DNA of 63,947 bases, counting the filler. It is 6 parts of 6 records of this genome, joined end to end, with 100 filler letters (N's around TTAATTAATTAA, not from the genome) between each part and the next. Parts side by side here need not be neighbours in the genome. Positions count along the whole stretch, not along the records: positions 1 to 14,462 come from SRR20825006_2492; 5 more parts are not named here. One strand, 5' to 3'. The translations under genes were made by a program, and so were the position numbers. Under the pieces are notes generated by a model. It was given only the letters and a program-made list of their open reading frames with translations, did not search any database and was not told the DNA's origin. Positions 1 to 25,239 of this stretch are shown here, in pieces; positions within the stretch are counted from its first letter, which is position 1, and each line of letters starts with the position of its first letter.

Positions 1-101
1 CACTCGATCGCTCAATTGAAAATTAGCGAAAAGTTTTTCTTGAAATTTTTTGGTCCTTGCATAATCTAAGATAAGGATGATTGTGCAGCGATTTAGTTTT
101 G

Positions 102-268
102 GATTTCGGAGTTTATTCACAATTTAGTTGTGCAACAGGCACATCGCCTAAAATGCATGCTCCATTCAAGCTTCGCACAACTATCCTATATGAAAACAAC
201 TATCTTTAGTATAAAACTTAATAACGTGTAAATGGCGCACGTCATTCTAGCCTTGAACGTTACCAAAC
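102..268 (+). repeat. Long intergenic element copy 1 (49-bp core 102-150; ends in GTTACCAAAC at 259-268)
   Basis: Core GATTTCGGAGTTTATTCACAATTTAGTTGTGCAACAGGCACATCGCCTA recurs ungapped at 5295, 6861 and 8865. Confidence 0.75.
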
Positions 269-281
269 ATAAAAAACAAGA

Positions 282-1970
282 ATGCAAATCAGAAAAATAT
301 TAATAATCTTCATCTCAATACTAACGCTTAAAAGTATTGCGGCAACTTATTATATATCTTCCAATACTGGTAATGATTTTAACTCAGGAACAACACCCGG
401 TTTAGCATGGAAAACATTGAATAAAATAAACTCATTTTCTTTTTCAGTTGGCGACTCTATTCTTTTTAAGCGAAATGAGATTTGGAGAGGACAATTGATT
501 CCTCAAAGTGGTTTTCCAGGCGCAAACAATTATTATGGAGCGTATTCTACGGGTGAAAAACCCAATATTTTAGGTTCTTTAAATTTTAGCGATATATCAG
601 ATTGGACAAATATTGGAGGGAATATTTGGAAATGTGATTCCATTTTTTCGACTGACATAGGAAATATCCTATTTGACAATGCCACGAGCGTAGGATTCAA
701 AAAGTGGAATTTAATCGAATTACAAAACCAAAATGACTTTTGGTTTGATTTATCATCTAACGAATTAGTGATATATTCTACATCTAATCCTGGAAGCATT
801 TATACAGAAATAGAACTTGCATTGCGAAAAGACATTGTTAACCATCAGAATAGAAGCTTTATTACGTTCGAAAATTTGAGTATTAAATATGGAGCTGCTC
901 ACGGTTTTGGCGGAGGCAATACATCAAATATTATTATTAATTCCTGTAACATCTCTTATATTGGCGGCGGCGACCTCAATATGGATGGTGCAATTAGATA
1001 TGGTAATGGTGTCGAATTTTGGGGGAATGCTTCAAATAATACGGTTTCAAAATGTAAAATATGGGAAATATATGATACTGGAGTTACCAATCAAAATCAT
1101 ACTACTCCAGTTTCACAAAATAATATCAAGTATCAAAATAACTTAATCTGGAATTGTGGTTTGTCTTCATTTGAATTTTGGTGCAAACCATCAATATCAA
1201 CAGTCAATGAAATCTATTTTGAAAATAACACTTGTTTATTTGCTGGCAGTGGCTGGGGAATACAACGGCCTGATTATTATGGAGTACACGTATTGATTAG
1301 TGGTAATATTGCTCAAACTGACACTGTTTATATTAGGAATAATATCTTTTTTGAGGCGCAACGAACTATATATGCATTTCACGACAGTGCAAATGGCCAA
1401 TATGAATTGGATTATAATGTAATGTATCAACCTACTGCTAATGATACATTATTTGCTTTTTTTCCTTCTAACCAAATTTATACTTATTTAGATTCCTCTT
1501 CATACACAAGTACATTAAATAAAGATTTAAACTCCGTATTTGGTGATCCCTATTTTACAAATTTATCAGGGTTAAATCTCACTTTACTAATCACGTCTAT
1601 CGCAATTGATGCAGGAACTAATACAAATATTATAGATGATTTTGAATATAACCCAAGACCAGTTAATGGAATATATGACATTGGAGCACATGAGTTCTCG
1701 GGACCATCAGCGATAACTGAAAATGAATATTTGAAAACAATAGTTGTCTATCCAAACCCAACAAACATTTCTTTCCGTGTCAGTTTTATTAATAAGGTAG
1801 GGGGGCTACTGAGTATATATGATATCATGGGACAAAGAATAATGTCCATAGACAACTATTCAAATAATCAAGAAATCAAAATAGATAATATGTCAAATGG
1901 TACGTACACGTTTACACTAAGTGATGATTCAGGAATTATTGAAACTGGAAAAATTATAGTCCGAAAATAA
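282..1970 (+). CDS. Secreted right-handed beta-helix protein with T9SS type A C-terminal sorting domain
   Basis: Signal peptide; YYISSNTGND...AWKTL start; beta-helix-like repeats; IDAG...DIGAHEF choice-of-anchor-like motif; C-terminal VYPNP...IYDIMGQ...GTYTFTL...KIIVRK. Confidence 0.8.
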   Translation: MQIRKILIIFISILTLKSIAATYYISSNTGNDFNSGTTPGLAWKTLNKINSFSFSVGDSILFKRNEIWRGQLIPQSGFPGANNYYGAYSTGEKPNILGSLNFSDISDWTNIGGNIWKCDSIFSTDIGNILFDNATSVGFKKWNLIELQNQNDFWFDLSSNELVIYSTSNPGSIYTEIELALRKDIVNHQNRSFITFENLSIKYGAAHGFGGGNTSNIIINSCNISYIGGGDLNMDGAIRYGNGVEFWGNASNNTVSKCKIWEIYDTGVTNQNHTTPVSQNNIKYQNNLIWNCGLSSFEFWCKPSISTVNEIYFENNTCLFAGSGWGIQRPDYYGVHVLISGNIAQTDTVYIRNNIFFEAQRTIYAFHDSANGQYELDYNVMYQPTANDTLFAFFPSNQIYTYLDSSSYTSTLNKDLNSVFGDPYFTNLSGLNLTLLITSIAIDAGTNTNIIDDFEYNPRPVNGIYDIGAHEFSGPSAITENEYLKTIVVYPNPTNISFRVSFINKVGGLLSIYDIMGQRIMSIDNYSNNQEIKIDNMSNGTYTFTLSDDSGIIETGKIIVRK

Positions 1971-1975
1971 ACGTT

Positions 1976-2035
1976 TGGTAACATTGTGTATATTTCATGC
2001 TCTTCGGGACACGCAGCATACACTAAACGTTATGG
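1976..2035 (+). repeat. attC-like 60-bp imperfect palindrome
   Basis: TGGTAAC-attGTGTAT...ATACAC-taaac-GTTATGG: AAC/GTT ends, inner GTGTAT/ATACAC arms, starts 5 nt after a stop codon. Confidence 0.7.
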
Positions 2036-2067
2036 CGAATTGAAGAAAACAACCAAAAAATAGAACT

Positions 2068-2739
2068 ATGTTAATAACGTATCTAATATTACTCCTAACT
2101 GCAATTATCTTTAGATTTTTACATTTTCCGGGAACAGGTTTGATTTTTGTTGTTTCACCCTTATTTCCGTTCATTGACATAATAATTCAATTAATTCGTG
2201 AAAAAGGTGATAAAGAAACAAGGCTTTTATCATCAATTAGTGTTCTTCTGCTATCCCTTTTCTTTTTGTTTAAGTTCTTATATTGGCCAGGGTATAGTTT
2301 GTTATTTTGGATTGCTATCACTGCTGTAGCAATATTTATTTTTCGATTTTTACAGAAAAAAATCCAGTTTAATGTTCGATTCTTTATAACTAGTTTGTTA
2401 TTTCTTTTCGCAGTTTTTAACTTTTCAATTAAAGGTTCAGATTTTAGATTAACATATCTATTAGAAGATCCATTTAACCCTTCTGAAGTCATTCCCCATT
2501 TCTACATCCAATCATTAGCTTATGAATATTATTTGGAGGGAGATTATGATAAGGCAGAAAAATTAATCCAACGAAATATAAATCATATTACTGATTTAAC
2601 CCTTGAAAAAAATGTGCCACAATATTTACAAGAAGTGGATAAACAAAATTTAGAAATTTCAATAAAAGATTTGAACGATATTCATAATCGTAGTTGGACT
2701 AATTTCGTTCCACTTTATAGAGAAGATCGACAGAACTAA
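2068..2739 (+). CDS. Membrane protein (two GldL N-terminal-like FxxxxxPG hairpins, TPR-like C-terminus)
   Basis: Several hydrophobic helices; FRFLHFPG and FKFLYWPG motifs; LAYEYYLEGDYDKAEKLIQR is TPR-like. Confidence 0.55.
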   Translation: MLITYLILLLTAIIFRFLHFPGTGLIFVVSPLFPFIDIIIQLIREKGDKETRLLSSISVLLLSLFFLFKFLYWPGYSLLFWIAITAVAIFIFRFLQKKIQFNVRFFITSLLFLFAVFNFSIKGSDFRLTYLLEDPFNPSEVIPHFYIQSLAYEYYLEGDYDKAEKLIQRNINHITDLTLEKNVPQYLQEVDKQNLEISIKDLNDIHNRSWTNFVPLYREDRQN

Positions 2740-2806
2740 AAAAAAGTGGCGCACAATTACACTCAAGAGAAGTGGCACATTGCCTGCAGCATAACCGTTA
2801 ATAGTA

Positions 2807-3262
2807 ATGATGAATACAACAAAACATGTGATACGAATCCTAGTAATGAGTGTACTACTCGTAGCATGTGGTACATCTGACAAAATCGTTTCTTTTAAGA
2901 AGGAATCTTCACAAACGGGGATATATGAATTTGACCCAAAGGGAACAACTCATAAAGTGCTTGACAATGATTCTACTACTTATACACTAAAATCGAAACC
3001 ATCCATCACCATTGAAAAATTTGAATCGCTGGAAATTTCAGATGAATGCTATGCGGGAGAAATTTGTATTTGCTTTAAATTTAATGAAGAAGGAACTAAA
3101 GAATATACAGCGTTGACCAAAAGAAATTTAAACGAAAAAATTTTTTACGTAATAGATGGTGTGGTAATTTCAGACCCGAATGTTATGGGAGTTATTAATG
3201 CTGGTATAGGTCAATTTCCCATCAAAGAAAAATACTTTGACTCTTTGTTTGTTGTAAAATGA
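2807..3262 (+). CDS. Lipoprotein with SecD/SecF P1 head-like domain
   Basis: Lipobox LVAC; ICFKFNEEGTKEYTALTKRNLNEKIFYVIDGVVISDPNV resembles the SecD head subdomain. Confidence 0.6.
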   Translation: MMNTTKHVIRILVMSVLLVACGTSDKIVSFKKESSQTGIYEFDPKGTTHKVLDNDSTTYTLKSKPSITIEKFESLEISDECYAGEICICFKFNEEGTKEYTALTKRNLNEKIFYVIDGVVISDPNVMGVINAGIGQFPIKEKYFDSLFVVK

Positions 3263-3379
3263 AAATGTTACTTACACGCACTTCGATGAAAGCAACTCTA
3301 AGTTCTCAACAATTGCATTCGATAGAATGCGTCACTTCGCCTAGTACGAACCGTTAGCAAATATTAAGCCTATCACCAG

Positions 3380-3922
3380 ATGACACCGATACAGAAAAAA
3401 CTAAATAAGCACCATGCGGAAAAGCTCTATTCTCGAATAACTAGAAGCTTTGGTGATTCTAGTGAAATATCGACCGGATTCATTTTGAAAATTTCCGACA
3501 CTTTGATTTTACTTCAAGAGAGCGATGAATTTAGAATTTTAGGGTATCAAATTATTCCAATAAACACGATTTCTCACGTTCGATACAATAACAATGATAG
3601 AACGTATCATCGAATATTGAAAAAAGAAGGGTTACTAGAATTTGTTGGCTTAAAATATGACATTGACTTAACAAGTTGGAAATCTGCCTGTCAAGGAGTT
3701 AAAAAAACCAAGTTGACAGTAATATCAGAATGTGAACATCCTGACCACGAATACTTCTGTATTGGAGAGTTAATGCGTGTTAATCCAAAGTCAATATCAA
3801 TTAGATATTTTAATGCCGCTGGAAAACTAGATGAAAAGAACACCACTCATGCCTTTAATGACATCACAAAATTAAGTTTTGACGATCGTTACGCAAACGT
3901 ATTTTCGAAGTACACTAAATAA
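3380..3922 (+). CDS. Hypothetical protein (internally two-domain, small beta-barrel-like)
   Basis: 180-aa ORF preceded by GTTAGCAAAT box at 3353-3362. Confidence 0.55.
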   Translation: MTPIQKKLNKHHAEKLYSRITRSFGDSSEISTGFILKISDTLILLQESDEFRILGYQIIPINTISHVRYNNNDRTYHRILKKEGLLEFVGLKYDIDLTSWKSACQGVKKTKLTVISECEHPDHEYFCIGELMRVNPKSISIRYFNAAGKLDEKNTTHAFNDITKLSFDDRYANVFSKYTK

Positions 3923-3958
3923 GAATTGACTGAGAACCAAGTATAGCTAGAAGAGAGA

Positions 3959-4414
3959 ATGAAAATAGTTGATCAAATATACAATCAAATCAAAATGGCT
4001 GTGAAAAGTCTGGAATATCTTGAGTTAGGAAATATTGATCATATAAATTTGTTGTACCCGCTACAAAAACTTGAATATGAAGAATGGGCGGAGATGCATG
4101 GAATCCTTCAAGACTTGACACAAGATGAATTGGGATTAATTGCTAACTCCTTAGTGGAAATAAAAGACAATAAAATTTCCAATTATGATACAGGTGCAAT
4201 GTATGCCTTCATATTCACAATTTCTAATGATTTCGTTGCTGAGTGTCTGCTGGAAAACTTTGATTTTATTGACAATAACCTACCAAAAGATGTTGAGTTA
4301 ATTGACGAATTACTGATTCGACTTAAAAACCTCGATGGAGCAATGAAAAGTAATATGGATTATACGTCTAAATATTCTTTGATTTATAAACTCTATAATG
4401 AAGCAGTTTGTTAA
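3959..4414 (+). CDS. Hypothetical acidic helical protein
   Basis: 151-aa ORF; stop codon lies inside a degenerate inverse-core-like box (TTTGTTAAG 4407-4415). Confidence 0.5.
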   Translation: MKIVDQIYNQIKMAVKSLEYLELGNIDHINLLYPLQKLEYEEWAEMHGILQDLTQDELGLIANSLVEIKDNKISNYDTGAMYAFIFTISNDFVAECLLENFDFIDNNLPKDVELIDELLIRLKNLDGAMKSNMDYTSKYSLIYKLYNEAVC

Positions 4415-4546
4415 GACGTTCTATACTCCAGCACCGATTTTCTCATCGAGAATCTGTCTTTTCGTATGGAAAAAATCATAATTTTATAGGAACGATTTTC
4501 GCTAGCGCCGTGGCATATTTGTGGTTGTTATCGGTAACGACCCAAT

Positions 4547-5248
4547 ATGAAAACTACGTTCAATTACTTACTGTTACTCCTTATCGCTTTTTCTTGTAAT
4601 CAAAGTCAAGAGGAAGGTGATTTTTTATATGATCCTACCGTTCCGTATCCATTATTTGATCCTGGTGATTTTTGGCTGGATAGCTTTGATGAGAGAGGTC
4701 TTCAAAATGCAAGTGTTTACAACGATGACCTTTATTGTAATACAATTGGTGGTTTCGGAGAGGATAATTATTTATACTGTTTTAGCTTAAGTAATGGAAC
4801 AGTTAAATGGCGAATGCCTGTCAAAGCCTTTTCAACCCAACCTATTACAATAATTAATGACAACTTGATTTATTGCTCTTATTTAGGACAAATACAGGTA
4901 TTCGATAAATACGGTAACGAACTTTGGAGTGAACGTTCTTCTCTACCTTACGGTGGTCATTGGGCGGATAGCAGTGATTTAACAATAAAAATATCGACAC
5001 CGTACGGATCGAAAGTATCAATACACAATTTGAATGGTAAGAATAGCACGGTGGTAGAAAGTGAAAAAATAAAAAAGGATATTGCTAGATTTGGTGGCCG
5101 CGTGAATCATACAAATAAACAATATCAAGTGAACCATAAAAATTGGAATTACTCAATCGACATCTCTACTCCAGGCACCAGAAAGCACAGTGTGGTAATA
5201 AAAAAAATATCGATAACTTACGTAACCATTACACAACCTCTTCCCTGA
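4547..5248 (+). CDS. Lipoprotein with PQQ/BamB-like beta-propeller repeats
   Basis: Lipobox AFSC; LYCFSLSNGTVKW and IQVFDKYGNELW repeats. Confidence 0.65.
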   Translation: MKTTFNYLLLLLIAFSCNQSQEEGDFLYDPTVPYPLFDPGDFWLDSFDERGLQNASVYNDDLYCNTIGGFGEDNYLYCFSLSNGTVKWRMPVKAFSTQPITIINDNLIYCSYLGQIQVFDKYGNELWSERSSLPYGGHWADSSDLTIKISTPYGSKVSIHNLNGKNSTVVESEKIKKDIARFGGRVNHTNKQYQVNHKNWNYSIDISTPGTRKHSVVIKKISITYVTITQPLP

Positions 5249-5462
5249 GCAACAACTGATTTTGTTGTTTTTACCTTGTTTGATCTTTCGGTTAGATTCC
5301 AGAGTTTATTCACATTTTAGCTGTGCAACAAGCACAAAGGCTTAGAAAGCATACTGGTTTATGCCTCGTAAGATCAATTTTGGTTAGAAAACTATTCCTA
5401 ACTTTAAAATCAAATCTGGGTGAAAGATCCGCAGCACTTTCTGGCTTTAGTCGCTGTAGTGC
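5209..5462 (+). repeat. Long intergenic element copy 2 (core 5295-5343)
   Basis: Core matches copy 1 at 40/49 by manual count; the tail is also alignable to 151-259; begins ATCGATAAC and ends GCTGTAGTGC. Confidence 0.7.
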
Positions 5463-5485
5463 ATTTGAAAGAACAAACTAAAAAT

Positions 5486-6073
5486 ATGAAAGACTCTTTA
5501 GTTCATTTTATTTCACAGTTCGACAAATTTACCAACGAGGAAATTAATGCTATTGTGGAAAATACTCAATTAGAGAATTTCAAAAAAGGAACTACAATTT
5601 TAAGAGAAGGTGAAATCTGTACTAAATGCTTTTTTGTTATAGAGGGATGCCTTCGACAATATCAAATAGTCAATGGAGAAGAAAAGACGACAGCGTTTTT
5701 TTGTGAAGGAGAAGCTGCAGTTTTATATTCCAGTTACTTAGAAAAAAAGCCGTCAAAATATTATTTATCAACCATTGAAAACTCCATTTTAACCACAGGA
5801 ACTAGAACAGCAGAAAAGGAATTGCATAGGAAACATCCGAATCTTGAAAATTTGATAAACACTTTAATGCCTAACGATTATGCCAAGTCTCAAGAACATA
5901 TCGAATTACTGAGCCATCATAGTCCTGAAGAAAGATACCAGATAATTTTAAAGAACTATCCCAAGCTTCTCAATAGAATCCCTTTGCATTTAATTGCGAG
6001 TTATATTGGAGTTACTCCTGAATCACTTAGCAGAATCAGAAAGAGAATTTTGACAAAGGAAAAATCCGAATAA
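5486..6073 (+). CDS. Crp/Fnr family transcriptional regulator
   Basis: cNMP-binding region (FKKGTTILREGEIC...FVIEGCLR); HTH IASYIGVTPESLSRIRK; ATG at 5486 preferred to GTG 5420, which lies inside the repeat element. Confidence 0.9.
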   Translation: MKDSLVHFISQFDKFTNEEINAIVENTQLENFKKGTTILREGEICTKCFFVIEGCLRQYQIVNGEEKTTAFFCEGEAAVLYSSYLEKKPSKYYLSTIENSILTTGTRTAEKELHRKHPNLENLINTLMPNDYAKSQEHIELLSHHSPEERYQIILKNYPKLLNRIPLHLIASYIGVTPESLSRIRKRILTKEKSE

Positions 6074-6085
6074 ATTCAATTGCAA

Positions 6086-6493
6086 TTATGCCGGTTTAAT
6101 CCCTTTCTTGTAGAATCGCAAAAGGACAAACAGACATAGGAATCCAACTAAAAGTTCGACAAACAAAGCTATCTGAAGTGGTTCGCTTGGAAATCCATCA
6201 AATATAATACTCACTAAACGTGACAATCCATACGATAAATAGATTAAACAAGATAGCTGAATGGAATAGATTGTCAATTTAGAAAAAAAGGCTCCTAAAA
6301 AAATTATTATTCCACTAACTAACAATAGTCCGCTAGGAGCCCTAATTTCGCTTAGTAAATTAATATCATCTCCGAGATTGATACCTGCTGACGCCTCAAA
6401 AGCAACTGGAGAAAATAAGAGAGAATATCCAATTCCAGTCCCAATCATTCCAGAAATTATTAAAAGCGCCTTTGTAAATATGTTCTTTTCCAT
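6086..6493 (-). CDS. DUF4345-like membrane protein
   Basis: Four TM helices; SEIRAPSG and SRLVSIIFDGFP motifs. Confidence 0.7.
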   Translation of the reverse strand: MEKNIFTKALLIISGMIGTGIGYSLLFSPVAFEASAGINLGDDINLLSEIRAPSGLLLVSGIIIFLGAFFSKLTIYSIQLSCLIYLSYGLSRLVSIIFDGFPSEPLQIALFVELLVGFLCLFVLLRFYKKGIKPA

Positions 6494-6607
6494 TTTTGTT
6501 TAATTTATAGTTATGCAAATATCGAAGCGGAAAAGAAAAAAAACCTTGACTTAAGATAAGAAAGTAATCTTACAGAATTTCTAGACAAAAAAAGAAAGAA
6601 CAAAAAC

Positions 6608-6790
6608 ACACTACAATAAGGTGTATAAATTATAGCCAGTAAGCGCTAAAGGAAAGGACTGTGCTTATGTGCGAATACCGCTAAATTTTTAAATTCGACT
6701 TTTAAAATTGATAAGTTGAAAACAAACTATAAAAATTCGGCGGTGTATTAATCCGAGAAATTAGCGTCTTTTTACAGGCAACATTTCATT
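6608..6790 (+). repeat. Long intergenic element of a different sequence type (starts ACACTACAAT-aag-GTGTAT)
   Basis: Starts with an inverse-core-like box complementary (TGTAGTG core) to 5453-5462, followed by GTGTAT as in the 1976-2035 element; internal CCGCTAAATTTTT...AAAAATTCGGCGG imperfect palindrome. Confidence 0.5.
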
Positions 6791-6797
6791 TAAAGAA

Positions 6798-6970
6798 GCA
6801 CCTAACATTCGTCGTTGCACCTGTTTTCCTCTGAGTTACATCGTTTGGTCATTCCTTGTAGATCCCAGAGTTTGTTCACATTTTAGTTGAGAAACAGACA
6901 CATCGCCTATACCTCACGCCGAAAAATGCTATATTGGAGTCGACACAAAACTTAGTCCCAACCATTATAC
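6798..6970 (+). repeat. Long intergenic element copy 3 (core 6861-6909)
   Basis: Starts GCACCTAAC (RYYYAAC consensus); core matches copy 1 at 41/49. Confidence 0.7.
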
Positions 6971-6978
6971 AAAGCAGG

Positions 6979-8232
6979 ATGAAAATATTAATAATTACCA
7001 TTGTCTCAGCATTAGTGTTAGTAGGGTGCAGTAATGATGAAAAGGCCAAAGATCCGAATACAAGTATCGTGTCAGATAGTAGCAAATTTATTAGCCAACG
7101 ACATTTCCACGAAAAAAAATATGAAGGCTTTAATTTTAATTCTGAACAGGATTGGGATAACTTAAATAATATTTCTCAAGAAAAAATACTTCACCAAAAA
7201 GGGAACGTGCACCCTGATTTCCGCACATTTGGTTGGCACATATATTCCAATGGTTCTTCATGGAAAAATTACAACTTTTCCATGCTATGGGGTCTTTCTT
7301 ACTTTTCATATAGTATTCAACCAGAAACTGGAAGCTATAAAAGTATCCATCAATGGAAAACTACTGCTTTGATTGATAGTGCGAAAGCTTACAATTGTAA
7401 AGTATTCCTTTCAGTTTCTAATTTTGGAAGTGACAATAATGCTACTTTTTTGGAAAATCCAAAAGCCCAGAAAACGTTGATTGATAGTTTGTCCTATTTA
7501 TTGGCTCTGAGATCTGCAGATGGTATTAATATCGATTTCGAAGGAGTATCAAAAAAGAACAAAAAGGGTTTTACAAAATTTATCATTGAAATTTCAAAGA
7601 GACTAAAACAAGATAATGCAAACTACATGATATCCCTGTGCCTTTATGCGGAGGACTGGAACAATATTTTCGACATTGAAACCATTGATCCCTACGTAGA
7701 TTTTTACACATTGATGGGGTATGATTACTTTGGAGGATTCAGTAAAAGAACTGGACCAGTGACTCCTTTTAACAAGAGCGAAAAATTTGGAAATGGTTTA
7801 AAAACATCTATTCAATATTATCAAGATAAAGGTGTGCATTCGAATAAATTAATTGTTGGTCTTCCTTATTATGGTGCTGAATGGTACACCAAAGAATCTC
7901 AACCAGGTTCAATGGTTTCAAAATTTAGAGATCATCCACCTTATAATGCGATTAGAAAATTCTATATTGACTTATTAAATACTCCAGTAAAATTTGATTC
8001 CCTAAGTTCTTCAACGTACATAGTTGTGAAAGACAGTAGTAATAGCTATCGTCAACTTTTTTTCGAAGACAAAAAATCACTAGGGATTAAATATGATTGG
8101 ATCAAGGAAAATCAAATAAGTGGAGTTGGTATTTGGGCATTAGGTTATGATGATGGTTATTCTGATTTATGGGACTTGTTAAATGAAAAATTTTCAGAAG
8201 AACAAAATTCAACTGTGTATCACAAAAAATAA
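6979..8232 (+). CDS. Glycoside hydrolase family 18 (chitinase-like) lipoprotein
   Basis: Lipobox LVGC after ATG 6979; catalytic DGINIDFEG; LMGYDY; KLIVGLPYYG; GVGIWALGYDD. Confidence 0.9.
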   Translation: MKILIITIVSALVLVGCSNDEKAKDPNTSIVSDSSKFISQRHFHEKKYEGFNFNSEQDWDNLNNISQEKILHQKGNVHPDFRTFGWHIYSNGSSWKNYNFSMLWGLSYFSYSIQPETGSYKSIHQWKTTALIDSAKAYNCKVFLSVSNFGSDNNATFLENPKAQKTLIDSLSYLLALRSADGINIDFEGVSKKNKKGFTKFIIEISKRLKQDNANYMISLCLYAEDWNNIFDIETIDPYVDFYTLMGYDYFGGFSKRTGPVTPFNKSEKFGNGLKTSIQYYQDKGVHSNKLIVGLPYYGAEWYTKESQPGSMVSKFRDHPPYNAIRKFYIDLLNTPVKFDSLSSSTYIVVKDSSNSYRQLFFEDKKSLGIKYDWIKENQISGVGIWALGYDDGYSDLWDLLNEKFSEEQNSTVYHKK

Positions 8233-8379
8233 ACATTATATCTAAGCCTAGCGAACTCCGCGGCGAAGACGATAGATCTCAAACGGGAAATGATCACTGA
8301 GAAAATTGCAACTACTACGGAGAATTTTTATAATTTAATTTTAAATAAATTGACATCAAGATTAATCACTTTAAAACCG

Positions 8380-8790
8380 ATGAAACTAATTACAGCAACA
8401 TTTTTTATACTTATTATTTCCGCATGTTTTGGACAAAATCAATTGTTGGATAGTTGCGGTGTAGACAGTAATCTCTTCCTTAATAAATATGAATCTCACT
8501 ATTTAAATTCTGTTTTTATAGATGAAAATTTTGACTTCGAAAACAAGAAAATTGAATTTAGATTATCCAATTACGGACATTTCTCCTCTAATAAAATGGC
8601 ATATTTTAAGGATGTGAAAGATTGGTTGGGAAAAGGTTCTAGAATTCACGAAGACATAATAATTCTAACCGAAGAAGAAAAAACAAGATTTGGAGATTAT
8701 GACGCAATAATAATCAGTTGGTCGAAAGTACCTGTCACGGGAAAAGCAAGAAACAAATGCTTAAAGAATTTATCCAAAATCAAAAGCTGA
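8380..8790 (+). CDS. Secreted hypothetical protein
   Basis: Signal-peptide-like MKLITATFFILIISACFGQ from ATG 8380. Confidence 0.55.
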   Translation: MKLITATFFILIISACFGQNQLLDSCGVDSNLFLNKYESHYLNSVFIDENFDFENKKIEFRLSNYGHFSSNKMAYFKDVKDWLGKGSRIHEDIIILTEEEKTRFGDYDAIIISWSKVPVTGKARNKCLKNLSKIKS

Positions 8791-8864
8791 AAACCATCCA
8801 AAAACGGGTTCAAAAGTGCTGCTACGAATATACTTTTGGCGCTTAACTTGTTGGATCTTTCATA

Positions 8865-8984
8865 GATTTTGGAGTTTGTTCGCATTTTAGTCATGTAACA
8901 GTCGCTTTGCCTGTGCTTAATACCGAAAAGGGTACATTCGAGAGTCGGCACGAAAGTATCACCGCAAATCGTTAACAAACATTA
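8865..8984 (+). repeat. Long intergenic element copy 4 (core 8865-8913; ends GTTAACAAAC 8971-8980)
   Basis: Core matches copy 1 at 37/49; tail CCGAAAAG...GAGTCGGCAC shared with copy 3 and with about 10844-10872. Confidence 0.65.
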
Positions 8985-8994
8985 AAACTAAATT

Positions 8995-9468
8995 ATGAAA
9001 ACAGTCATTGGATTACTTTTAACGATCATCTTATTTTCATGTAATCAGGGAGCTGATAAAACGACTACTGAAGTTCAATTATCTGAAGAAAATGAAAGTA
9101 TTCAAACGAATACGGCCTATGAGCATGAAAAGTTTGTAGCAATAAATCCTGACGAAATAAATCAGCTATTAAAAGGAAAAAATGAGGATTTATCTGCTCA
9201 AGATGTGATTAAATTATATTATCCTAATGAGATAAACTCAGGTGAAGGAAATGAGAAAATAGAAATCACCGAAAAAAATAGTGAAAACGGAAATACATTA
9301 GTAACGCTAATTCATGATAATCTACTAGACGATTCTCAAAGAGGAGAAAAATATATTATGGAATTGAAAAGAGTGAAAAATAAATGGACCGTAGTTTCTA
9401 TAAAAAAGAATTGGAAGTGTTGGGATGGGAGAGGGCATACTGATTGGGGAATTGAACTATGTGAATAA
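8995..9468 (+). CDS. Hypothetical lipoprotein
   Basis: Lipobox LFSC; DDS..G..Y and C-terminal WKC..GRGH..W....C motif. Confidence 0.65.
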   Translation: MKTVIGLLLTIILFSCNQGADKTTTEVQLSEENESIQTNTAYEHEKFVAINPDEINQLLKGKNEDLSAQDVIKLYYPNEINSGEGNEKIEITEKNSENGNTLVTLIHDNLLDDSQRGEKYIMELKRVKNKWTVVSIKKNWKCWDGRGHTDWGIELCE

Positions 9469-9469
9469 C

Positions 9470-9600
9470 GTTTGCTAACGCGGATATTCGAAACGTTGGG
9501 GAAAGCTAAACCTTGTTTTTAACGACACTATCCCGTTAAGTGTGTAAACCGAAAGTTTAATATTCCAAATCATTACTTTTATATTTTAAACGTTTGTTAG
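9470..9600 (+). repeat. attC-like intergenic element
   Basis: GTTTGCTAAC right after the stop codon, complementary to 8971-8980 at 9/10; ends TAAACGTTTGTTAG just before the next ATG. Confidence 0.55.
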
Positions 9601-9612
9601 AATTGACTCAGA

Positions 9613-9993
9613 ATGGAATTGGACTCTTTATCAGAATATTATTACGACAAGAAGGTGAACGGTATGGACTTTTCGGAAATTCGTAGTGAACTGAAAGCTA
9701 AAGGACTCGATGACTCTGAGATAAGAATTATTATAGGCTCAATTGATAATAAACTTTTGATGAGCATCCGACAAAACAATGATAGATCACAAGTCAATAC
9801 GACGAAAATCATTGGAATTTTTCTCGTAGTAGGCGGAACAATTATCACGGTAGGAACATCTACTGGCTGGATCCAAATGGGCAATTATTTTATTTTCGCT
9901 TATGGACCAATCTTGGGCGGATTAACCATGATGGCGACCTCAAGAAGTGGACGGTCTAGTATTTTTAATCGCAACCAAAAATCCAGAAGATAA
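9613..9993 (+). CDS. Hypothetical membrane protein
   Basis: Soluble N-terminus followed by two TM helices (FAYGPILGG motif). Confidence 0.6.
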   Translation: MELDSLSEYYYDKKVNGMDFSEIRSELKAKGLDDSEIRIIIGSIDNKLLMSIRQNNDRSQVNTTKIIGIFLVVGGTIITVGTSTGWIQMGNYFIFAYGPILGGLTMMATSRSGRSSIFNRNQKSRR

Positions 9994-10094
9994 AACAAGA
10001 TTATTTTGAATAACAGATTAGTACGAACTTTTCCGTCTTAGATTAATTTCGCTTGTAAAAAAAAAAGACTCATAAATGCAAATTTTAAAATTTA

Positions 10095-10286
10095 ATGGAC
10101 GAACAAACTTTAATCAGAATCCAGAAAATTGCTGAACTCTCTGGAATGACCGCTAATGAAAGGCTATATGCAAGCGGTCTCATGGATGAGTTTGACAAAG
10201 CCATTAATGATGATAAAATTAGGGCTAAACAAATATTAAGAGGATTGAGAGTTGACGAATCTTCGATTGAAAAAATAGTAAAATAA
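10095..10286 (+). CDS. Small hypothetical protein
   Basis: 63-aa ORF with GMTANERLY..GLMDEFD motif; AT-rich leader; co-oriented with the array. Confidence 0.55.
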   Translation: MDEQTLIRIQKIAELSGMTANERLYASGLMDEFDKAINDDKIRAKQILRGLRVDESSIEKIVK

Positions 10287-10352
10287 ACTCCCTATAAAGC
10301 CAATGAAACAACTGTCGGGAAGTTAAATTTTAAAGAAAAGTGAAGCAGAAGA

Positions 10353-10814
10353 ATGAATAAAATGATTAAATGCCAAAATTGCGATAAGAATTTCATTCCA
10401 GATGAAAAGCAACAAGAATTTATTAATTCCTCGGTAAAAAAGGGAATGACTTTTGTAATGTTTGAATGTCAAAATTGTGGACTAGGGTTTGGCTTCAATC
10501 CTAGCGGTGGTTCGGTACCATCACCTGAACTAGCGCCTTTAAGAACACCAATTTCTGGTTCACACGGATTTATATCATATATTGACGATAATTCTGAAAA
10601 GTTCTATGGCTGCGGAGAGACTGGTGCGATCTGGAAGAAACTAGAAAATCTATTCAGAGACATTGAAAAAATAATTGTAAAGTATCCTCATCGAGCTCGG
10701 TTTTATCTTAAGAAAGATGGCAACTGGATTGCTAATCCAACTGAACCAGAAAACATTTATGAATTGATTGACAGTGAGTCTTATACGGAGTTAAGTTTCT
10801 ACGAACAAGACTAA
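10353..10814 (+). CDS. Hypothetical protein with N-terminal zinc ribbon
   Basis: CQNC...CQNC pair; stop codon inside GACTAAC (10809-10815). Confidence 0.6.
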   Translation: MNKMIKCQNCDKNFIPDEKQQEFINSSVKKGMTFVMFECQNCGLGFGFNPSGGSVPSPELAPLRTPISGSHGFISYIDDNSEKFYGCGETGAIWKKLENLFRDIEKIIVKYPHRARFYLKKDGNWIANPTEPENIYELIDSESYTELSFYEQD

Positions 10815-11069
10815 CATTACAGTAATCTGCGCTAAGTTTTACTCCGAAAAGTGGTATGTCCGAGAGTTAGCAAAGGGCTTCGATGCCACTCATTATCTGC
10901 GATCTGATGAGAACACTTAGAAAAAAATACACTTAATAAATGAGGGTCACATAATTACAGGTTAAAAAATCCAAAAACGATACAGACTTCTCACAAAAAA
11001 ACTCAAACAATTTAAAGGTTACTAAAAAGCATCTATTTTAAAAGCATGTTCCGAACAAACCCAACCGAT

Positions 11070-12329
11070 TCACTCCTTAGACAACTTTCCAATCACAATT
11101 TTCCGGTTATTATCAAAATTCAATCTGTAAAAATATGTACCGCTAGATACGTCAGTGAGCTCAACCTCAGGAAGATCTTCAGTAATCATTTCAACACTTA
11201 CGATCGTCCCAGTAATAGAATACAATGTAAACTCGCACGACTTGAAATCCCCGAATGGAATAGTTACTCGATCAAAAAATGGGTTTGGAAATAAAGCAAA
11301 TTTTAAAAATGCGTCATCATTTTCTGAAATACTATTCCAAGTGATTCCGCACCCATCAGAAGAAAGTAAACTAGTCCTAATGGTTGTCAAAGCAGCGATC
11401 ATTCTGTTTTTCTGCCCCAAGGTGAAATGATCCGCACACTTCGTATAATCCATGTAATTTGTAAGATCGTCAGGTTGATCTCCCAAACCACCGAGGGCAA
11501 CAGGTCTGAACGGATTATTTGTCGACTGATCATCGGCATCCGAAAGGCACGAATTACTCGTTTGACAATCATTATTCGGATAGCTGACGGGGGGTGTATC
11601 ACAGACATTATCATTATCAACCGTGCAATCGTTGTTTAAACAGCCACCCTGAAAAGTATGATACAATCCTAGATAGTGACCTACTTCGTGCTCAAACAAA
11701 CCTGGGTAGTAAAAAAAAGTATCCGCACTATTCATATAGGCGTGATACAGAAAAACGCCGTCCATATAATACCCATTACTGTTTGGGAAAAATCCCCAAC
11801 CTGTACGAGCACTGCCTGCGACAAACAGATTTTTCACCAAATAAACATTCAAATAATCCTTGGTTTTCCAATGATACAACCTACAAATACTATCCATAAG
11901 ATCAGTTGAAGTAGACAAACCATTACTATTTATATAAGAGTACATGTGTGAAAACTCAGAGTAATCACGCGTGATTCCAGTCGTAGGCAAACCATTCGTA
12001 TCCTTCTCAGCTAGGCAAAAATTAATATCTACATCCACACCATCTGGAGTTTGAAACGAACCACTATTCGCAAAACGCTCATTGAGTTCAGAAATCCAAT
12101 TAATCACCACAGAATCAGGTACATTTTCCGCACCTCCCTGATGAACTAAGTGAAAAACGACAGGTACATTATACGTTGATTTCGGCGAATCCGAGAGAGA
12201 ATGAAGCTTACTTTTGAACGCCGAATTTTCCCATTGGTCGTTCTTTTCTACACCACAAAATGAAGATTGCGCAGGAGAAACAAAGGCATAAAAAGCCATT
12301 AAAGTCAGTGAAATGAGTTCCTTTTTCAT
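11070..12329 (-). CDS. M43 (pappalysin/ulilysin-like) zinc metalloprotease with T9SS sorting domain
   Basis: Cys-switch CG; VPVVFHLVH; HEVGHYLGLYH zinc motif; NYMDY Met-turn; FT.GQ..RM; LFPNPF C-terminal domain. Confidence 0.9.
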   Translation of the reverse strand: MKKELISLTLMAFYAFVSPAQSSFCGVEKNDQWENSAFKSKLHSLSDSPKSTYNVPVVFHLVHQGGAENVPDSVVINWISELNERFANSGSFQTPDGVDVDINFCLAEKDTNGLPTTGITRDYSEFSHMYSYINSNGLSTSTDLMDSICRLYHWKTKDYLNVYLVKNLFVAGSARTGWGFFPNSNGYYMDGVFLYHAYMNSADTFFYYPGLFEHEVGHYLGLYHTFQGGCLNNDCTVDNDNVCDTPPVSYPNNDCQTSNSCLSDADDQSTNNPFRPVALGGLGDQPDDLTNYMDYTKCADHFTLGQKNRMIAALTTIRTSLLSSDGCGITWNSISENDDAFLKFALFPNPFFDRVTIPFGDFKSCEFTLYSITGTIVSVEMITEDLPEVELTDVSSGTYFYRLNFDNNRKIVIGKLSKE

Positions 12330-12456
12330 AGAATAAAGACGACTCCCTGTCCATCAAAGTTGTTCCATCGAACTTAGGCTCTCAAAGTCCAACAATGATC
12401 ATCTAAAAAACGCTATATTTAGAATTCAAAAAATTTAACCCTAGAAACAGAAGCAA

Positions 12457-13248
12457 ATGCCCTTTCGAATACTCCTTTTTTTCCTTTTCAGCTCAACACT
12501 TTCTTTTGCACAAACAACCTCCAACGACAGTCTCTTCATGCAAGGTGGTGAACTCTTCAGGGTCAGATACACTGGAGTGGAGGGGTTCTATAAAACATAC
12601 GACGACTTTCTGAACGAACGAATCACAGACACCGTAGAATTCAAATTAGACAACTACGTCCCAGGTGCCGACAACCGATTGTCAATAGTCACAAAAAAAA
12701 GCAATGGAAAAGACAGCTATGAACTTGTAAATTTCGCCGAATCCAAAATTCAATACTGGGGAGCGCGCATCAAAGTGTATTCAGACGGCACGAAGTATGT
12801 CGATTTTCGCTTTCATGACTCGAAACTGCTGGAAATCCTACTCATGGGAGACATCATTGTGTACTCAACTGGAGGGTTACACATCACGCACACTGGATCA
12901 TTAGACGACAGATCACCCAACGTGCATAAAAAGCACATTAGAGAAATGCAGCTCTTGAAAGTCGGAACCAATTTCACAGGCAAACACCGCGTGTTTCTGG
13001 AGAATGTGGAATTAGGTATAGGATCAAACGTTGATAAAATCTATTATCACAAAGAAACCGTCTATTTTCAAAAAGGACTTGAAGGAGAACTCATCAAATA
13101 CGCTAAGCCAAAAGATGCCCTGGAGGTGCTTGGTGATTGCCCAAAAGTGCAAGAATCATTGAAAGCAGCCAAGCCCAAAGGAAAAATTGAACGCATCAAA
13201 GAATTGTACATGCACATCGACATCTACAACCATTGCTTGCAGGAGTGA
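12457..13248 (+). CDS. Secreted hypothetical protein
   Basis: Signal peptide ending SFA-Q; 263 aa. Confidence 0.6.
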   Translation: MPFRILLFFLFSSTLSFAQTTSNDSLFMQGGELFRVRYTGVEGFYKTYDDFLNERITDTVEFKLDNYVPGADNRLSIVTKKSNGKDSYELVNFAESKIQYWGARIKVYSDGTKYVDFRFHDSKLLEILLMGDIIVYSTGGLHITHTGSLDDRSPNVHKKHIREMQLLKVGTNFTGKHRVFLENVELGIGSNVDKIYYHKETVYFQKGLEGELIKYAKPKDALEVLGDCPKVQESLKAAKPKGKIERIKELYMHIDIYNHCLQE

Positions 13249-13400
13249 TAACTGGTTTTTTCGCCCTTACCTGTTCAAAAAAACTTCTCAATTGTATGAT
13301 TACAAAATTGTGCAATCCTTCTTTTGATATGCGCAAAACCGTGTATTTCACAACTTCCTACACCGATAGCAATAGTCGACTGAGGCTCTCGAGGTAAATT

Positions 13401-13898
13401 CTACCGATAATCTTCAATTGCGAATTTATGAGGAATCGCGTAGGTTTGCCCTTTTTCTTTAGAGACAAATACAAGGTCTTCACAATAAACTAAACCATCA
13501 CCAATTACTCTTCCTTTCAAGGTTATTCTAACCTTTTCTTTTTCATCTTGCAACGCGTCCAATTTGTACTTTTTGATCTTCGAATAATCTCTTTTGTCAA
13601 AGTAGATTCTAATAATAGAATCATTATCTAATTTTAGCTGCACGTAAGGATTATATAAAAGATCTTCTTTTTTAAGAACGTCATAAATTCTCAAAATACT
13701 TTTTGTCGTACCGTCCAACGAATCCCTGTTTTCCAATTTTGCCAGACCATCAACCCATTTTACAACCTCTTTCGGTTGTTTATACAAACTCCCATAACGC
13801 CAAAGACCAAAGTACAAATCACCTTGAAGTGTATCAATTTGTCCAAAAGAAGAGCTTGAGAATAAAATTGCAAAGGAAAACAGTAGTATTTTTTTCAT
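13401..13898 (-). CDS. Secreted hypothetical protein
   Basis: Signal peptide ending SFG-Q; 165 aa. Confidence 0.6.
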   Translation of the reverse strand: MKKILLFSFAILFSSSSFGQIDTLQGDLYFGLWRYGSLYKQPKEVVKWVDGLAKLENRDSLDGTTKSILRIYDVLKKEDLLYNPYVQLKLDNDSIIRIYFDKRDYSKIKKYKLDALQDEKEKVRITLKGRVIGDGLVYCEDLVFVSKEKGQTYAIPHKFAIEDYR

Positions 13899-14015
13899 TC
13901 TTGTAATTAAGGAAGAATTCTATTGAAAAAAGGAATACTTCTTAATCTCATGGTGAATTCAAATTTACCTGACGAAAATAATTCTTAAATTAGAATAACC
14001 AACCACATCTACTAC

Positions 14016-14462
14016 ATGACATTTAACCCAAAAATCCACAACCGCCGAAGCATTCGCTTAAAAGAGTATGATTACTCGAGCGTTGGACTTTACTTCATCA
14101 CCCTTTGTGTCGAAGGGAGAACACATCTATTTGGAAACATTGAAAGCGGAGAAATGAAGCTCAATTCATTCGGAAAAATAGTCGCTGATGAATGGGAAAA
14201 ATCCGCGCAAATTAGAGAAAACATAACCCTAGGAGAATATATCATCATGCCTGACCATTTTCATGGAGTCATTGAAATTAAGGAACAAATAATAAAGGAT
14301 TCATCCGCTTCTCCAGGCGAATTCAAATCACCATCCCACACCATCGGGGCCATAATTCGCGGCTTCAAAGGAGCGGCGACCAAAAATATCAAATCATTTT
14401 TATTCACCGATACGGGCGAATTGCTATTCGCCCCGACAGAAGAAGAATTGCTATTCGCTCCG
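14016..14462 (+). mobile_element. REP-associated tyrosine transposase (RAYT, IS200/Y1 HUH family), 3'-truncated by contig end
   Basis: RRSIRLKEYDYSSVGLYFITLC N-terminus; HUH motif IIMPDHFHGVI; IGAIIRGFKGA. Confidence 0.85.
14414..14462 (+). repeat. REP-like palindromic repeat, 27-bp period, inside RAYT CDS
   Basis: GGGCGAAT-TGCT-ATTCGCCC hairpin 14414-14433; GAATTGCTATTCGC at 14418 and 14445. Confidence 0.7.
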
Positions 14463-14562
14463 NNNNNNNNNNNNNNNNNNNNNNNNNNNNNNNNNNNNNN
14501 NNNNNNTTAATTAATTAANNNNNNNNNNNNNNNNNNNNNNNNNNNNNNNNNNNNNNNNNNNN
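14463..14562. other. Artificial contig linker
   Basis: N-run + TTAATTAATTAA (stops in all six frames) + N-run. Confidence 0.98.
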
Positions 14563-14563
14563 A

Positions 14564-15079
14564 CTCACAGTAACTGTTGGTGGTTCATCTGTCGGTTCAA
14601 TCGACTATGGCGCTGGCACAACTTCTGAAGACGTGATCACAGCCTTGAACGCAATTGATGGTGTTACCGCCTCCACCGACGGGACCACAATTTCGATCAC
14701 ATCCGAAAATGGTGACATTGTCATTGACGACACCGACACAACAGCTGACCTAGCCACCCAAACTGGTTCGGGCTATGTTGCCGGTTCATTCGACAGCGAC
14801 ACCTCAATCAACGACTCTTTGACAGCGTTGAATACTGCCTTGAACACATTGCGGTCTCAGGCGTCTACATTCGGTACAAACCTGACTGTGGTCGAAAACC
14901 GTCAAAACTTCACAACTCGTTTGGTCAACACTTTGGAAGAAGGTGCAGGCAAATTAACATTGGCTGACACCAACGAAGAAGGCGCGAACTTGCTGGCGTT
15001 GCAAACACGTCAACAGCTCTCCTCTACGTCACTTTCTTTCGCCTCTCAGGCAGATCAGAACGTGTTGCGTTTGTTCTAA
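14564..15079 (+). CDS. fliC: Flagellin, 5'-truncated (copy 1)
   Basis: Flagellin C-terminus LADTNEEGANLLALQTRQQL...VLRLF; frame open back to the contig edge. Confidence 0.92.
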   Translation, partial: LTVTVGGSSVGSIDYGAGTTSEDVITALNAIDGVTASTDGTTISITSENGDIVIDDTDTTADLATQTGSGYVAGSFDSDTSINDSLTALNTALNTLRSQASTFGTNLTVVENRQNFTTRLVNTLEEGAGKLTLADTNEEGANLLALQTRQQLSSTSLSFASQADQNVLRLF

Positions 15080-15112
15080 GGATAAAGAATTTAGTATTGC
15101 GTACTTTATCGC

Positions 15113-15149
15113 AATGGGCGGTGTGCGGATCATGCACCGCCCATTTTTT
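15113..15149 (+). terminator. Rho-independent terminator
   Basis: AATGGGCGGTG...CACCGCCCATT hairpin + T-run. Confidence 0.8.
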
Positions 15150-15179
15150 ATTATTATATATAGTCACTTACCCTTTTCA

Positions 15180-15194
15180 TTAACCGCTCATTAA
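15180..15194. promoter_or_regulatory. CtrA-box-like site upstream of flagellin 2
   Basis: TTAA-CCGCTCA-TTAA = TTAA-N7-TTAA. Confidence 0.7.
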
Positions 15195-15257
15195 CCGCCT
15201 GAAACATAATGTAACCGCGTCCAGAATGGACATTTCGGGGGATAATCAGAAGATTAT

Positions 15258-16421: not shown

Positions 16422-16447
16422 TAGGTTGAAAAATATAACAAAATTAC

Positions 16448-16474
16448 AAGGCGAGCTTCGGCTCGCCTTTTTTT
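16448..16474 (+). terminator. Rho-independent terminator
   Basis: AAGGCGAGC-TTCG-GCTCGCCTT + T-run. Confidence 0.85.
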
Positions 16475-16529
16475 ATTGCCTGAACTATTTTTCGCATTTT
16501 GCAACAAAATCCGCATTTTGCACGGCCAG

Positions 16530-16544
16530 TTAAACTTCGATTAA
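16530..16544. promoter_or_regulatory. CtrA-box-like site upstream of flagellin 3
   Basis: TTAA-ACTTCGA-TTAA. Confidence 0.7.
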
Positions 16545-16609
16545 CCATGTTCCGGCATGATCATAAGTGCCCCAGAATCGGGCCTTAGAAACCATGAAGG
16601 AATAGAACT

Positions 16610-17722: not shown

Positions 17723-17762
17723 GACGCAACATAAATCAGCTCATCGAGCTATTTCTTCAAAG

Positions 17763-17791
17763 AAGGCGTCGAATTTTTCGGCGCCTTTTTT
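17763..17791 (+). terminator. Rho-independent terminator
   Basis: AAGGCGTCGAA...TTCGGCGCCTT + T-run. Confidence 0.8.
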
Positions 17792-17808
17792 ATTTATCCA
17801 TCATGAAT

Positions 17809-17903
17809 AGGCAATTTTTGCCGCGCAAACTGTGGAAAATCGCACCAACCGACCCAATTTGAACCATTCTGTTAATATGCGTTAACCTTTCGGTAAGGTT
17901 AAC
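17809..17903. promoter_or_regulatory. Regulatory region of flagellin 4: ftr-like GGCAATTTTTGCC and CtrA-like TTAA cluster
   Basis: AGGCAATTTTTGCCG 17809-17823; TTAA-N7-GTAA 17882-17896 within palindrome GTTAACCTT-N5-AAGGTTAAC 17881-17903. Confidence 0.5.
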
Positions 17904-17966
17904 AATTCATTGTCATCAAGAATCGTGGCAAGACTCTATTAACAACTCCAGGAAGGATGGTTCGCG

Positions 17967-19076: not shown

Positions 19077-19118
19077 GATCAAACTTAAAGCGTTCCGCGT
19101 AACCTTTAAGAGGACGAG

Positions 19119-19902: not shown

Positions 19903-19912
19903 TTCACTTCAC

Positions 19913-21894: not shown

Positions 21895-21906
21895 ATCTCA
21901 ATCCCC

Positions 21907-25191: not shown

Positions 25192-25239
25192 TTGTTTCTC
25201 CTTACTGTCGATGCGGACATCGAAATCCACCTGAAGTAA

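Follow-up and report, generated by a model that had tools for sequence, protein, structure and literature searches.

The stretch of DNA analysed here, hereafter the window, is 63,947 bases long and comprises six contigs joined by spacers of the form N44-TTAATTAATTAA-N44 (14463–14562, 27448–27547, 37566–37665, 47539–47638 and 56478–56577), so that neighbouring stretches in it are without physical linkage. The element in question, a 60-nt imperfect palindrome at about 1973–2038 and a candidate recombination site closing a one-gene cassette, lies on the first contig (1–14462; G+C 32–38%). Between 282 and 10814 of this contig, 12 of the 13 open reading frames (ORFs) of at least 100 aa (those inside a longer ORF left out; GC 32–36%) are on the plus strand, and two of the contig's genes encode sorting domains of the type IX secretion system (T9SS), which identifies its host as a Bacteroidota organism. 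The genomes closest to the window belong to a family whose named members are Flavobacteriaceae; the nearest one, G001, gave no match to the first contig and aligned with another contig of the window at ~70% identity. Judged by these sequence relationships, the host of the array described below is Flavobacteriaceae-like.

The cassette that the palindrome closes occupies 260–2029 (plus strand, 1770 nt), running from the TT of an upstream GTT as far as the G in the GTT that follows, and contains one ORF. This cargo gene (282–1970, plus strand, 562 aa) begins 22 nt past the TT at 260 and stops 2 nt short of the site, and its product has a signal-like segment at the N terminus and, at the C terminus, a T9SS sorting domain (PF18962, E = 7.4e-10). 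Compared with solved structures, the protein matched a Por sorting domain (8glj_D, E = 1.8e-7), and its residues 20–98 matched the N-terminal part of chain 7v6m_A as well as residues 244–321 of the lacto-N-biosidase chain 6kqs_A. A preliminary description, made from the letters alone, had already reported a 562-aa T9SS-dependent protein with a 22-nt leader, in agreement with these results.

The site itself is a hairpin of the short class (1973–2038, plus strand), spanning 60 nt from TGGTAAC (1976–1982) to GTTATGG (2029–2035), or 66 nt when 10-nt end boxes are included. Its 5′ box, GTTTGGTAAC (1973–1982), ends in AAC (1980–1982), while its 3′ box (2029–2038) opens with GTT (2029–2031), the remainder of which is part of the next cassette. 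Inside the boxes lie two unpaired spacers, ATT (1983–1985) on the 5′ side and TAAAC (2024–2028) on the 3′ side, followed by the stem arms 1986–1999 and 2010–2023, which begin with GTGTAT (1986–1991) and end with ATACAC (2018–2023), and a loop (2000–2009) around CTTCGG. The box GTTTGGTAAC is the exact reverse complement, 10/10, of GTTACCAAAC (259–268), the end boxes of the cassette being thereby fully complementary. The preliminary description had named the two ends, their 60-bp span, the inner arms, the spacer, the loop and this 10-bp complement, and every letter stated there proved to be in place.

Taken alone, neither the palindrome nor the box match is beyond chance. Complementary GTT.../...AAC 10-mers with at most one mismatch numbered 72 on both strands compared with 68 ± 13 in shuffled sequence, i.e. 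chance level; the chains of box pairs in the window had a length of 3, against 2–6 in shuffles; and a loose scan for an AAC-stem-GTT pattern gave 135 candidates across 14.5 kb. Box-pair counting and chaining is useful only where many intact sites adjoin. What places the site beyond chance is the fold of the circle junction, the score under a model of the site family, and the fact that the complementary boxes coincide exactly with the ends that the model assigns to two neighbouring sites. The circle junction, consisting of the site and its cassette's own first 9 nt, gave folding energies of −11.6 kcal/mol for the top and −12.7 kcal/mol for the bottom strand (z −4.0 and −4.6, respectively), and 0 of 500 shuffles were equally stable; folding this junction had been proposed as a check in the preliminary description. 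The model, R2, was built from 38 sites of seven other genomes with no window sequence and was run with filters off on both strands of all 63,947 bases. The best match was 1973–2038 (plus strand, 36 bits, E = 2.3e-7), which bears out its earlier designation as the least decayed site, and the second was 134–268 (plus strand, 23.5 bits, E = 3.6e-4), with E above 0.2 in the rest of the window. These two significant sites are the ones with complementary boxes, and a single gene lies between them. The upstream one, a medium-class hairpin of ~135 nt, contains in its 3′ box GTTACCAAAC the putative crossover G|TT that opens cassette 1, and has a degenerate 5′ box with CAC replacing AAC.

The site belongs to a family. 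A DNA search of 151 genomes of the family of G001 revealed two matches of 78–80% identity to the 60-mer, both in G009, in which the inner 40 nt are conserved and the outer boxes are different except for AAC and GTT. From chains of boxes at eight loci of seven genomes, 66 sites were gathered, which fell into size classes (10-nt boxes included) of 57–85 nt (12 sites), 135–141 nt (42) and 198–207 nt (12), and 38 medium-class sites, the ones from which R2 was built, were aligned. The AAC and GTT triplets were invariant in all 38, and the spacer was always 3 nt after AAC (38/38) and 5–6 nt before GTT. The stem covaries: RNAalifold, run unguided, predicted a terminal stem of 13 pairs, with compensatory changes in 11, and 92.7% of the cells were paired versus 70.5% in column shuffles (0 of 500 reached the observed value), falling to 23–42% when the partners were slid by 1–3 columns.

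The two strands of these sites are not equivalent. Across 15 stem columns of the 38 sites, 106 cells were non-Watson-Crick, 85 of them A.C or C.A on the coding strand and 2 G.T, and two stem positions were A.C in 36 and 29 of the 38 sites; the A.C mismatches 1992.2017 and 1997.2012 of the window's site are these two conserved positions. Since an A.C mismatch on the top strand is a G.T wobble on the bottom strand, the minimum-energy folds of the 66 sites contained 3.29 G:T pairs per site on the bottom versus 0.68 on the top strand, and the bottom strand was the more stable in 59 of 66, by a mean margin of 2.1 kcal/mol. It is these wobbles and energies, and nothing besides, that point to the bottom strand as the one likely to be chosen.

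A stem-loop that begins 2 nt past a stop codon could also act in RNA, as a transcription terminator or as some other hairpin at the gene's 3′ end. This is extremely improbable, because a sense transcript would carry the conserved mismatches as A.C and thus fold worst, and because the outer boxes covary with the neighbouring cassette and not with each other. Nor does a T-run follow the stem, the sequence there being ATGGCGAATTGAAG; a terminator scan called four sites on the contig, none of them at 1971–2038; and Rfam 15 gave no match at gathering thresholds in the window and five loci, and none at E ≤ 1 in a 5.2-kb dense array. Homologues of the 60-mer lie in cassette arrays, rather than behind core genes as terminators, the finding that the preliminary description had named as speaking against its proposal.

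The outer boxes follow a rule that defines the cassette. In G009:C25, seven co-oriented genes are each followed by a site whose 5′ box reverse-complements the preceding 3′ box (four pairs at 10/10, two at 9/10), and in G009:C7 five cassettes show the same agreement between the 5′ box and the cassette's own beginning, giving a total of 11 consecutive box pairs at 9–10/10 in this genome. At three loci of named genomes outside the R2 training set, all nine adjacent pairs fitted, six of them at 7/7 and three at 6/7 of the variable positions, whereas the 5′ box agreed with the 3′ box of its own site at only 1–5 of 7. Elsewhere, one of two pairs fitted at L112, and no fit was found at L069 and L090, with two matched sites each, possibly owing to sites missed in between. 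With each 5′ box matching the beginning of the cassette that its site closes, the crossover would be at G|TT. The same is indicated by G107, in which a 400-nt cassette occurs four times with an identical downstream 83-nt site and differing upstream sites (137 nt versus 202 nt), and identity between the copies begins and ends at GTT; a gene thus moves with the site downstream of it, with the crossover in the 3′ GTT, as in integrons. The unit 260–2029 of the window behaves as such a single cassette, closed by a hairpin site and with the crossover at G|TT, as had been proposed for it.

These regularities also bear on the possibility of a selfish palindromic repeat, of the repetitive extragenic palindrome or miniature inverted-repeat transposable element (MITE) kind, which would insert between genes without cassette mobility. 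Multi-copy, intergenic and imperfectly palindromic throughout the family, the sites resemble such repeats, and some single copies lie far from any listed recombinase. Yet the ends of a MITE pair mutually, while the ends here pair with those of neighbouring sites; the sites are co-oriented with the genes; arrays begin beside one recombinase family; and entire gene-plus-site units are duplicated. We therefore regard a selfish repeat as highly unlikely.

In relatives, the arrays are linked to a tyrosine recombinase. Homologues of the G009 recombinase were found at E ≤ 1e-40 in 105 of the 151 family genomes, and in at least 30 genomes among the matches listed the gene and sites share a contig and are no more than 20 kb apart, the gene usually being upstream of and co-directional with the sites; it is divergent in G009:C7, G104 and G113, and in G009:C7 the first cassette opens at a GTT box 150 nt from the divergent gene. 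The catalytic residues of the enzyme have been conserved, and its relatives share an additional N-terminal domain, 85–110 residues long. In a structural model (mean pLDDT 79.9), the best match among solved structures was VchIntIA (E = 3.4e-15), followed by archaeal XerA; the N-terminal domain was modelled as two beta-hairpins and two helices (pLDDT ~62–81), and the Foldseek matches were confined to the core. NF040815 (XerA / 'integron integrase') scored 185–233 bits against the array-adjacent proteins, with three of eight above its cut-off of 220. The integron integrase model TIGR02249 scored 179–207 bits against all eight, below its 265-bit cut-off, and seven of them matched it in two stretches with model positions ~180–238 skipped; likewise, residues ~211–244 of the VchIntIA chain 2a3v, the IntI-specific insertion, have no counterpart in the recombinase.

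The nearly equal scores of this enzyme under XerC/XerD/XerA and IntI models would suit double-stranded sites of the Xer/dif kind, as in plasmid dif modules and Xer-dependent integrative elements, on which the housekeeping Xer proteins would act. The core match to NF040815 and the XerA structures as next-best folds are further likenesses to the archaeal XerA and bacterial XerC/XerD systems; dif, however, is a single 28-nt duplex site at the terminus and not an array of gene-bracketing hairpins. The conserved boxes here are 50–200 nt apart and brought together only by the hairpin, stem covariation and a strong strand bias have no role in a duplex site, and the linked recombinase, with its extra N-terminal domain, is distinct from the ~300-aa Xer-like genes elsewhere in the same genomes. 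A duplex Xer site is accordingly very improbable.

Integrons are the textbook device that captures genes as cassettes. Sedentary chromosomal integrons and clusters of attC sites lacking integrases (CALIN) share with the arrays described here co-oriented, mostly one-gene cassettes ending in imperfect AAC...GTT hairpins, a G|TT crossover with the 5′ box matching the start of its own cassette, and a more stable, G:T-enriched bottom strand. Site sizes are also alike, at 57–141 nt, the family here extending beyond to the 198–207-nt class. Both form arrays of up to tens of kilobases beside a tyrosine recombinase, for which VchIntIA (2a3v) is the nearest solved structure, and both contain duplicate cassettes, with toxin-antitoxin, Abi, immunity and detoxification genes among the cargo of the relatives. 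The differences are that the recombinase here is without the IntI-specific insertion and has the extra N-terminal domain, that its gene is usually co-directional with the cassettes, that the spacer is asymmetric (3 versus 5–6 nt), and that the inner stem sequence is conserved across genera.

The site might, on these likenesses, be a canonical attC served by a classical IntI encoded elsewhere in the genome: its AAC...GTT ends, its 60-nt size and its box complementary to the cassette start all conform, and the G:T bias is of the same kind as that of classical attC sites (1.24 versus 0.39 G:T pairs; PMC5027507). According to the same paper, however, the central spacer of attC is 5–6 nt unpaired on each arm, and its extrahelical bases lie near L″, on the arm opposite the bottom-strand AAC. 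The sites here have 3 versus 5–6 nt, and by our reading of the alignment their extra spacer bases, and the single bulge of some subtypes, are on the L′/R′ arm carrying the bottom-strand (cleaved) AAC, i.e. the wrong arm for attC. Besides the eight of eight array-adjacent recombinases and the 2a3v alignment, all without the IntI insertion, none of five related whole genomes contained a TIGR02249 match over the cut-off, in a search whose 14 control genomes were all integron-free and so gave no positive control. The canonical-integron reading is already refuted for the relatives, and it has very little probability for the window. The preliminary description was therefore right in kind and wrong in detail: the site is neither the 'textbook' attC nor the IntI substrate it was taken for, and since the recombinase beside the arrays lacks the IntI-defining insertion, the assay with IntI1 suggested there would be the wrong test.

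The sites proved to be widespread in the phylum. R2 matched at E ≤ 1e-5 in 134 of the 151 family genomes, each of another genus but for one pair, with at most 21 candidates scored per genome, and in 52 of 151 genomes sampled across the phylum, in many families; the narrow short-class model R1 matched in 48 of the 151 family genomes. Arrays can be long, as in G090 (sites at 537762–601339, downstream of a recombinase at 531410) and G139 (sites from 144692 down to 82491), and at six of seven loci counted, 16–19 ORFs were on one strand, co-oriented with the sites, versus 1–3 on the other. Scanning public genomes with an alignment of the recombinase yielded 79 loci, of which, by our assignment of their record titles to phyla, 37 were from Bacteroidota, 40 from other taxa and 2 unlabelled; R2 sites (E ≤ 1e-3) were present at 13 of the 37 Bacteroidota-labelled loci and one of the two unlabelled, and at none of the other 40, so that the earlier proposal of a system native to the Bacteroidota is upheld. 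The site-bearing named organisms include Winogradskyella ursingii, Psychroserpens sp., Dokdonia sp., Aquiflexum sp. and Alkalitalea saponilacus, and the metagenome-assembled genomes with sites are labelled Cryomorphaceae and Bacteroidales; in the Bacteroidales-labelled contigs L077 and L087, sites of this family are again located downstream of a recombinase of the family described above.

Taken together, the 60-mer is quite probably an attC-analogue recombination site at the 3′ end of a one-gene cassette, part of an integron-like gene-capture system of the Bacteroidota. In the mechanism that we propose, the bottom strand would fold into an imperfect hairpin, in which the outer boxes ...AAC and GTT... 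would pair, fully so only in the circular cassette, because the bases after the G of GTT belong to the next cassette. Between this outer duplex and the inner stem, which has 6 + 4 + 2 or more pairs and is interrupted by the two conserved G.T wobbles, there would be an internal loop of 3 nt versus 5–6 nt. An IntI/XerA-like tyrosine recombinase, without the IntI insertion and with its own 85–110-residue N-terminal domain, would then cut and exchange strands at G|TT, presumably on single-stranded DNA and at about this position, and cassettes would leave as circles and enter at the head of the array.

Several observations weigh against this reading. In its array context the hairpin folded no better than shuffles (z −0.84/−0.24 and, in a second test, 0.0/−0.4), as did the inner stem alone (z −0.6), and its middle helix has lost two of the four pairs relative to the G009 homologues. 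In classical attC, the bottom strand is selected by a loop asymmetry opposite to the one seen here (PMC5027507). Significant R2 sites occupy just two of the window's intergenic gaps, and no recognisable closing site was found for the next unit (2030–2806, plus strand; ORF 2068–2739, 223 aa), in which it is reduced to ...CATAAC followed by CGTTAAT at 2789–2801 and R2 had no match at E ≤ 10. No recombinase gene was found in the window (best tblastn E = 0.17), and it is the position of the recombinase beside the arrays of relatives that suggests that it would act on these sites. Finally, the four public runs that contain the contig, all as contigs, which cannot reveal rare events, showed neither joints nor variant arrangements.

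The array in the window is an orphan, on a 14.5-kb contig without a recombinase and with its neighbouring sites mostly decayed, and the 1973–2038 site may therefore be no longer in use. A decayed long-class site of ~200 nt lies at 6605–6800 (plus strand); R2 reached only E = 1.6 there, and it was recognised by family alignments, being alignable over the full length of the long-class sites of G107, G150 and G120. Its 5′ box ends in TAC instead of AAC, its 3′ GTT box is missing or displaced, and the non-coding 6590–6792 is 68–82% identical to sequences in dozens of family genomes, often at contig ends. A probable cassette (8971–9479, plus strand; ORF 8995–9468) has boxes GTTAACAAAC and GTTTGCTAAC that are 9/10 complementary, with decayed flanking sites (R2 at 9470–9504 only E = 2.6), and a weak candidate site with the end box GTTAGCAAAT lies in an intergenic gap at 3301–3362 (plus strand; R2 11.2 bits, E = 0.5, not significant). 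Elsewhere, homologues of two of the window's genes are cassettes: the homologue of ORF 3959–4414 sits between two sites in G075, and that of ORF 3380–3922 follows a site in G141. R1 detected nothing beside homologues of the window's genes, but R2 did find sites there. The decayed sites and these homologues together indicate that the window contains an array in decay.

The published system closest to this one is rAID-1 (recombinase-associated acquired interbacterial defence 1) of gut Bacteroidales, defined by Ross et al. (2019) by a 5′ XerD-like recombinase, whose identity to the reference from B. fragilis is 44% or more, and by at least two low-GC genes that are co-directional and have repetitive sequences between them. 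The latter trait is present in the window, in the form of the two significant and several decayed sites, and related arrays contain immunity-type genes, Imm33-like and WapI-like. In contrast, rAID-1 is defined only in Bacteroidales and by its immunity-gene cargo, while the host here is Flavobacteriaceae-like, the cassettes carry a gene for a T9SS-secreted protein and further genes unrelated to immunity, and no immunity families were found among the window's ORFs. The rAID-1 papers give motifs without site structure, crossover point or strand, and a 2025 preprint describes the mechanism as still open. A link to rAID-1 is suggested by the shared architecture and by the R2 matches beside the recombinase in the Bacteroidales-labelled contigs. 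Our literature search found no description of such Flavobacteriaceae arrays and no rAID-1 site structure, although the supplementary motif figure S4 on rAID-1 may show related motifs; an integron-like system of the Bacteroidota is hardly described outside gut Bacteroides. As to integrons proper, a 2024 preprint (10.1101/2024.07.02.601686) counts the Bacteroidota among the clades previously found without them, and IntegronFinder 2.0 (PMC9024848) reports one complete integron in Bacteroidetes, in Salinibacter ruber.

We lean towards a wider interpretation, in which the Bacteroidota would harbour a second integron lineage, common in the phylum, with bottom-strand hairpins on which an IntI/XerA-like enzyme would carry out recombination at G|TT although it has lost, or never possessed, a domain thought indispensable for recombining single-stranded attC; the rAID-1 immunity arrays would be one branch of it and the marine Flavobacteriaceae arrays, shuffling T9SS-secreted enzymes, defence and resistance-type genes, another. 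The extra domain of IntI is held to enable the reading of folded single-stranded sites (PMC4792948; PMC8138268), and cassette logic without it bears on how hairpin recombination evolved from Xer. The 'biogenesis' of the rAID-1 immunity arrays, so far unexplained, would gain a concrete and testable site, strand and crossover, and a large pool of mobile genes of marine and gut Bacteroidota may escape tools that need IntI to call an integron. The window itself contributes a clean short-class site, a perfect box match, and a cargo usable only by a T9SS host, which argues for a home-grown cassette pool.

Some further features of the related loci were recorded. At L055 (G107:C1:729000-748999), at least 21 consecutive cassettes lie within 17 kb (2123–19095), several of them two to four times, resembling the duplication in large chromosomal integrons, and a tRNA gene (175–248) is located ~700 nt upstream of the array recombinase, so the G107 platform may be at a tRNA locus. 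Besides the array with the Imm33-like immunity gene, two arrays from another family of the phylum, L148 (G215:C7) and L149 (G219:C44), contain AbiEii, Abi_C and a WapI-like immunity gene, together with a MerA-like reductase with HMA and ArsR genes, a glyoxalase, a nitroreductase, esterases and a serine hydrolase of the Beta-lactamase Pfam family, a cargo of the kind usual in chromosomal integrons. Several array-adjacent recombinase genes (e.g. G072:C27, G107:C1, G144:C3 and G036:C1) are interrupted by one or two in-frame stop codons; the enzyme is often broken while the array persists.

Within the first contig, a 67-nt repeat occurs in four copies (100–166, 5293–5359, 6859–6925 and 8863–8929) that are 61–72% identical, with conservation of another ~30 bases upstream. 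A box-like ...AAC, then an A and two more bases, terminates every copy, and other contigs of the same runs have positions 87–143 in common and diverge afterwards; the repeat may represent a junction between two sites or one end of a site-targeting element. The contig begins with the start of an insertion sequence-type transposase gene that runs off its end (1–62, minus strand). This DNA is similar to the end of G103:C102, where the ORF weakly matches DUF772 (E = 0.005), and the frame of the window's copy is broken after 16 codons relative to the G103 copy; the fragment is outside the cassette system and marks why the contig stops. In three public runs, read depth was ~3 times higher over 1–483 and ~1.6–1.9 times higher at the right end (14008–14462), indicating that repeats stopped the assembly at both ends.

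The second contig of the window (14563–27447) stands apart, with 43–53% G+C versus 27–38% elsewhere in the window and with no match in G001, and among its genes are those for four flagellins, FlbT, FlaF, FlgK and hook proteins. Flagella are normally absent from Bacteroidota that glide by means of the T9SS; because of these flagellar genes, the contig probably comes from another organism of the same sample or bin.

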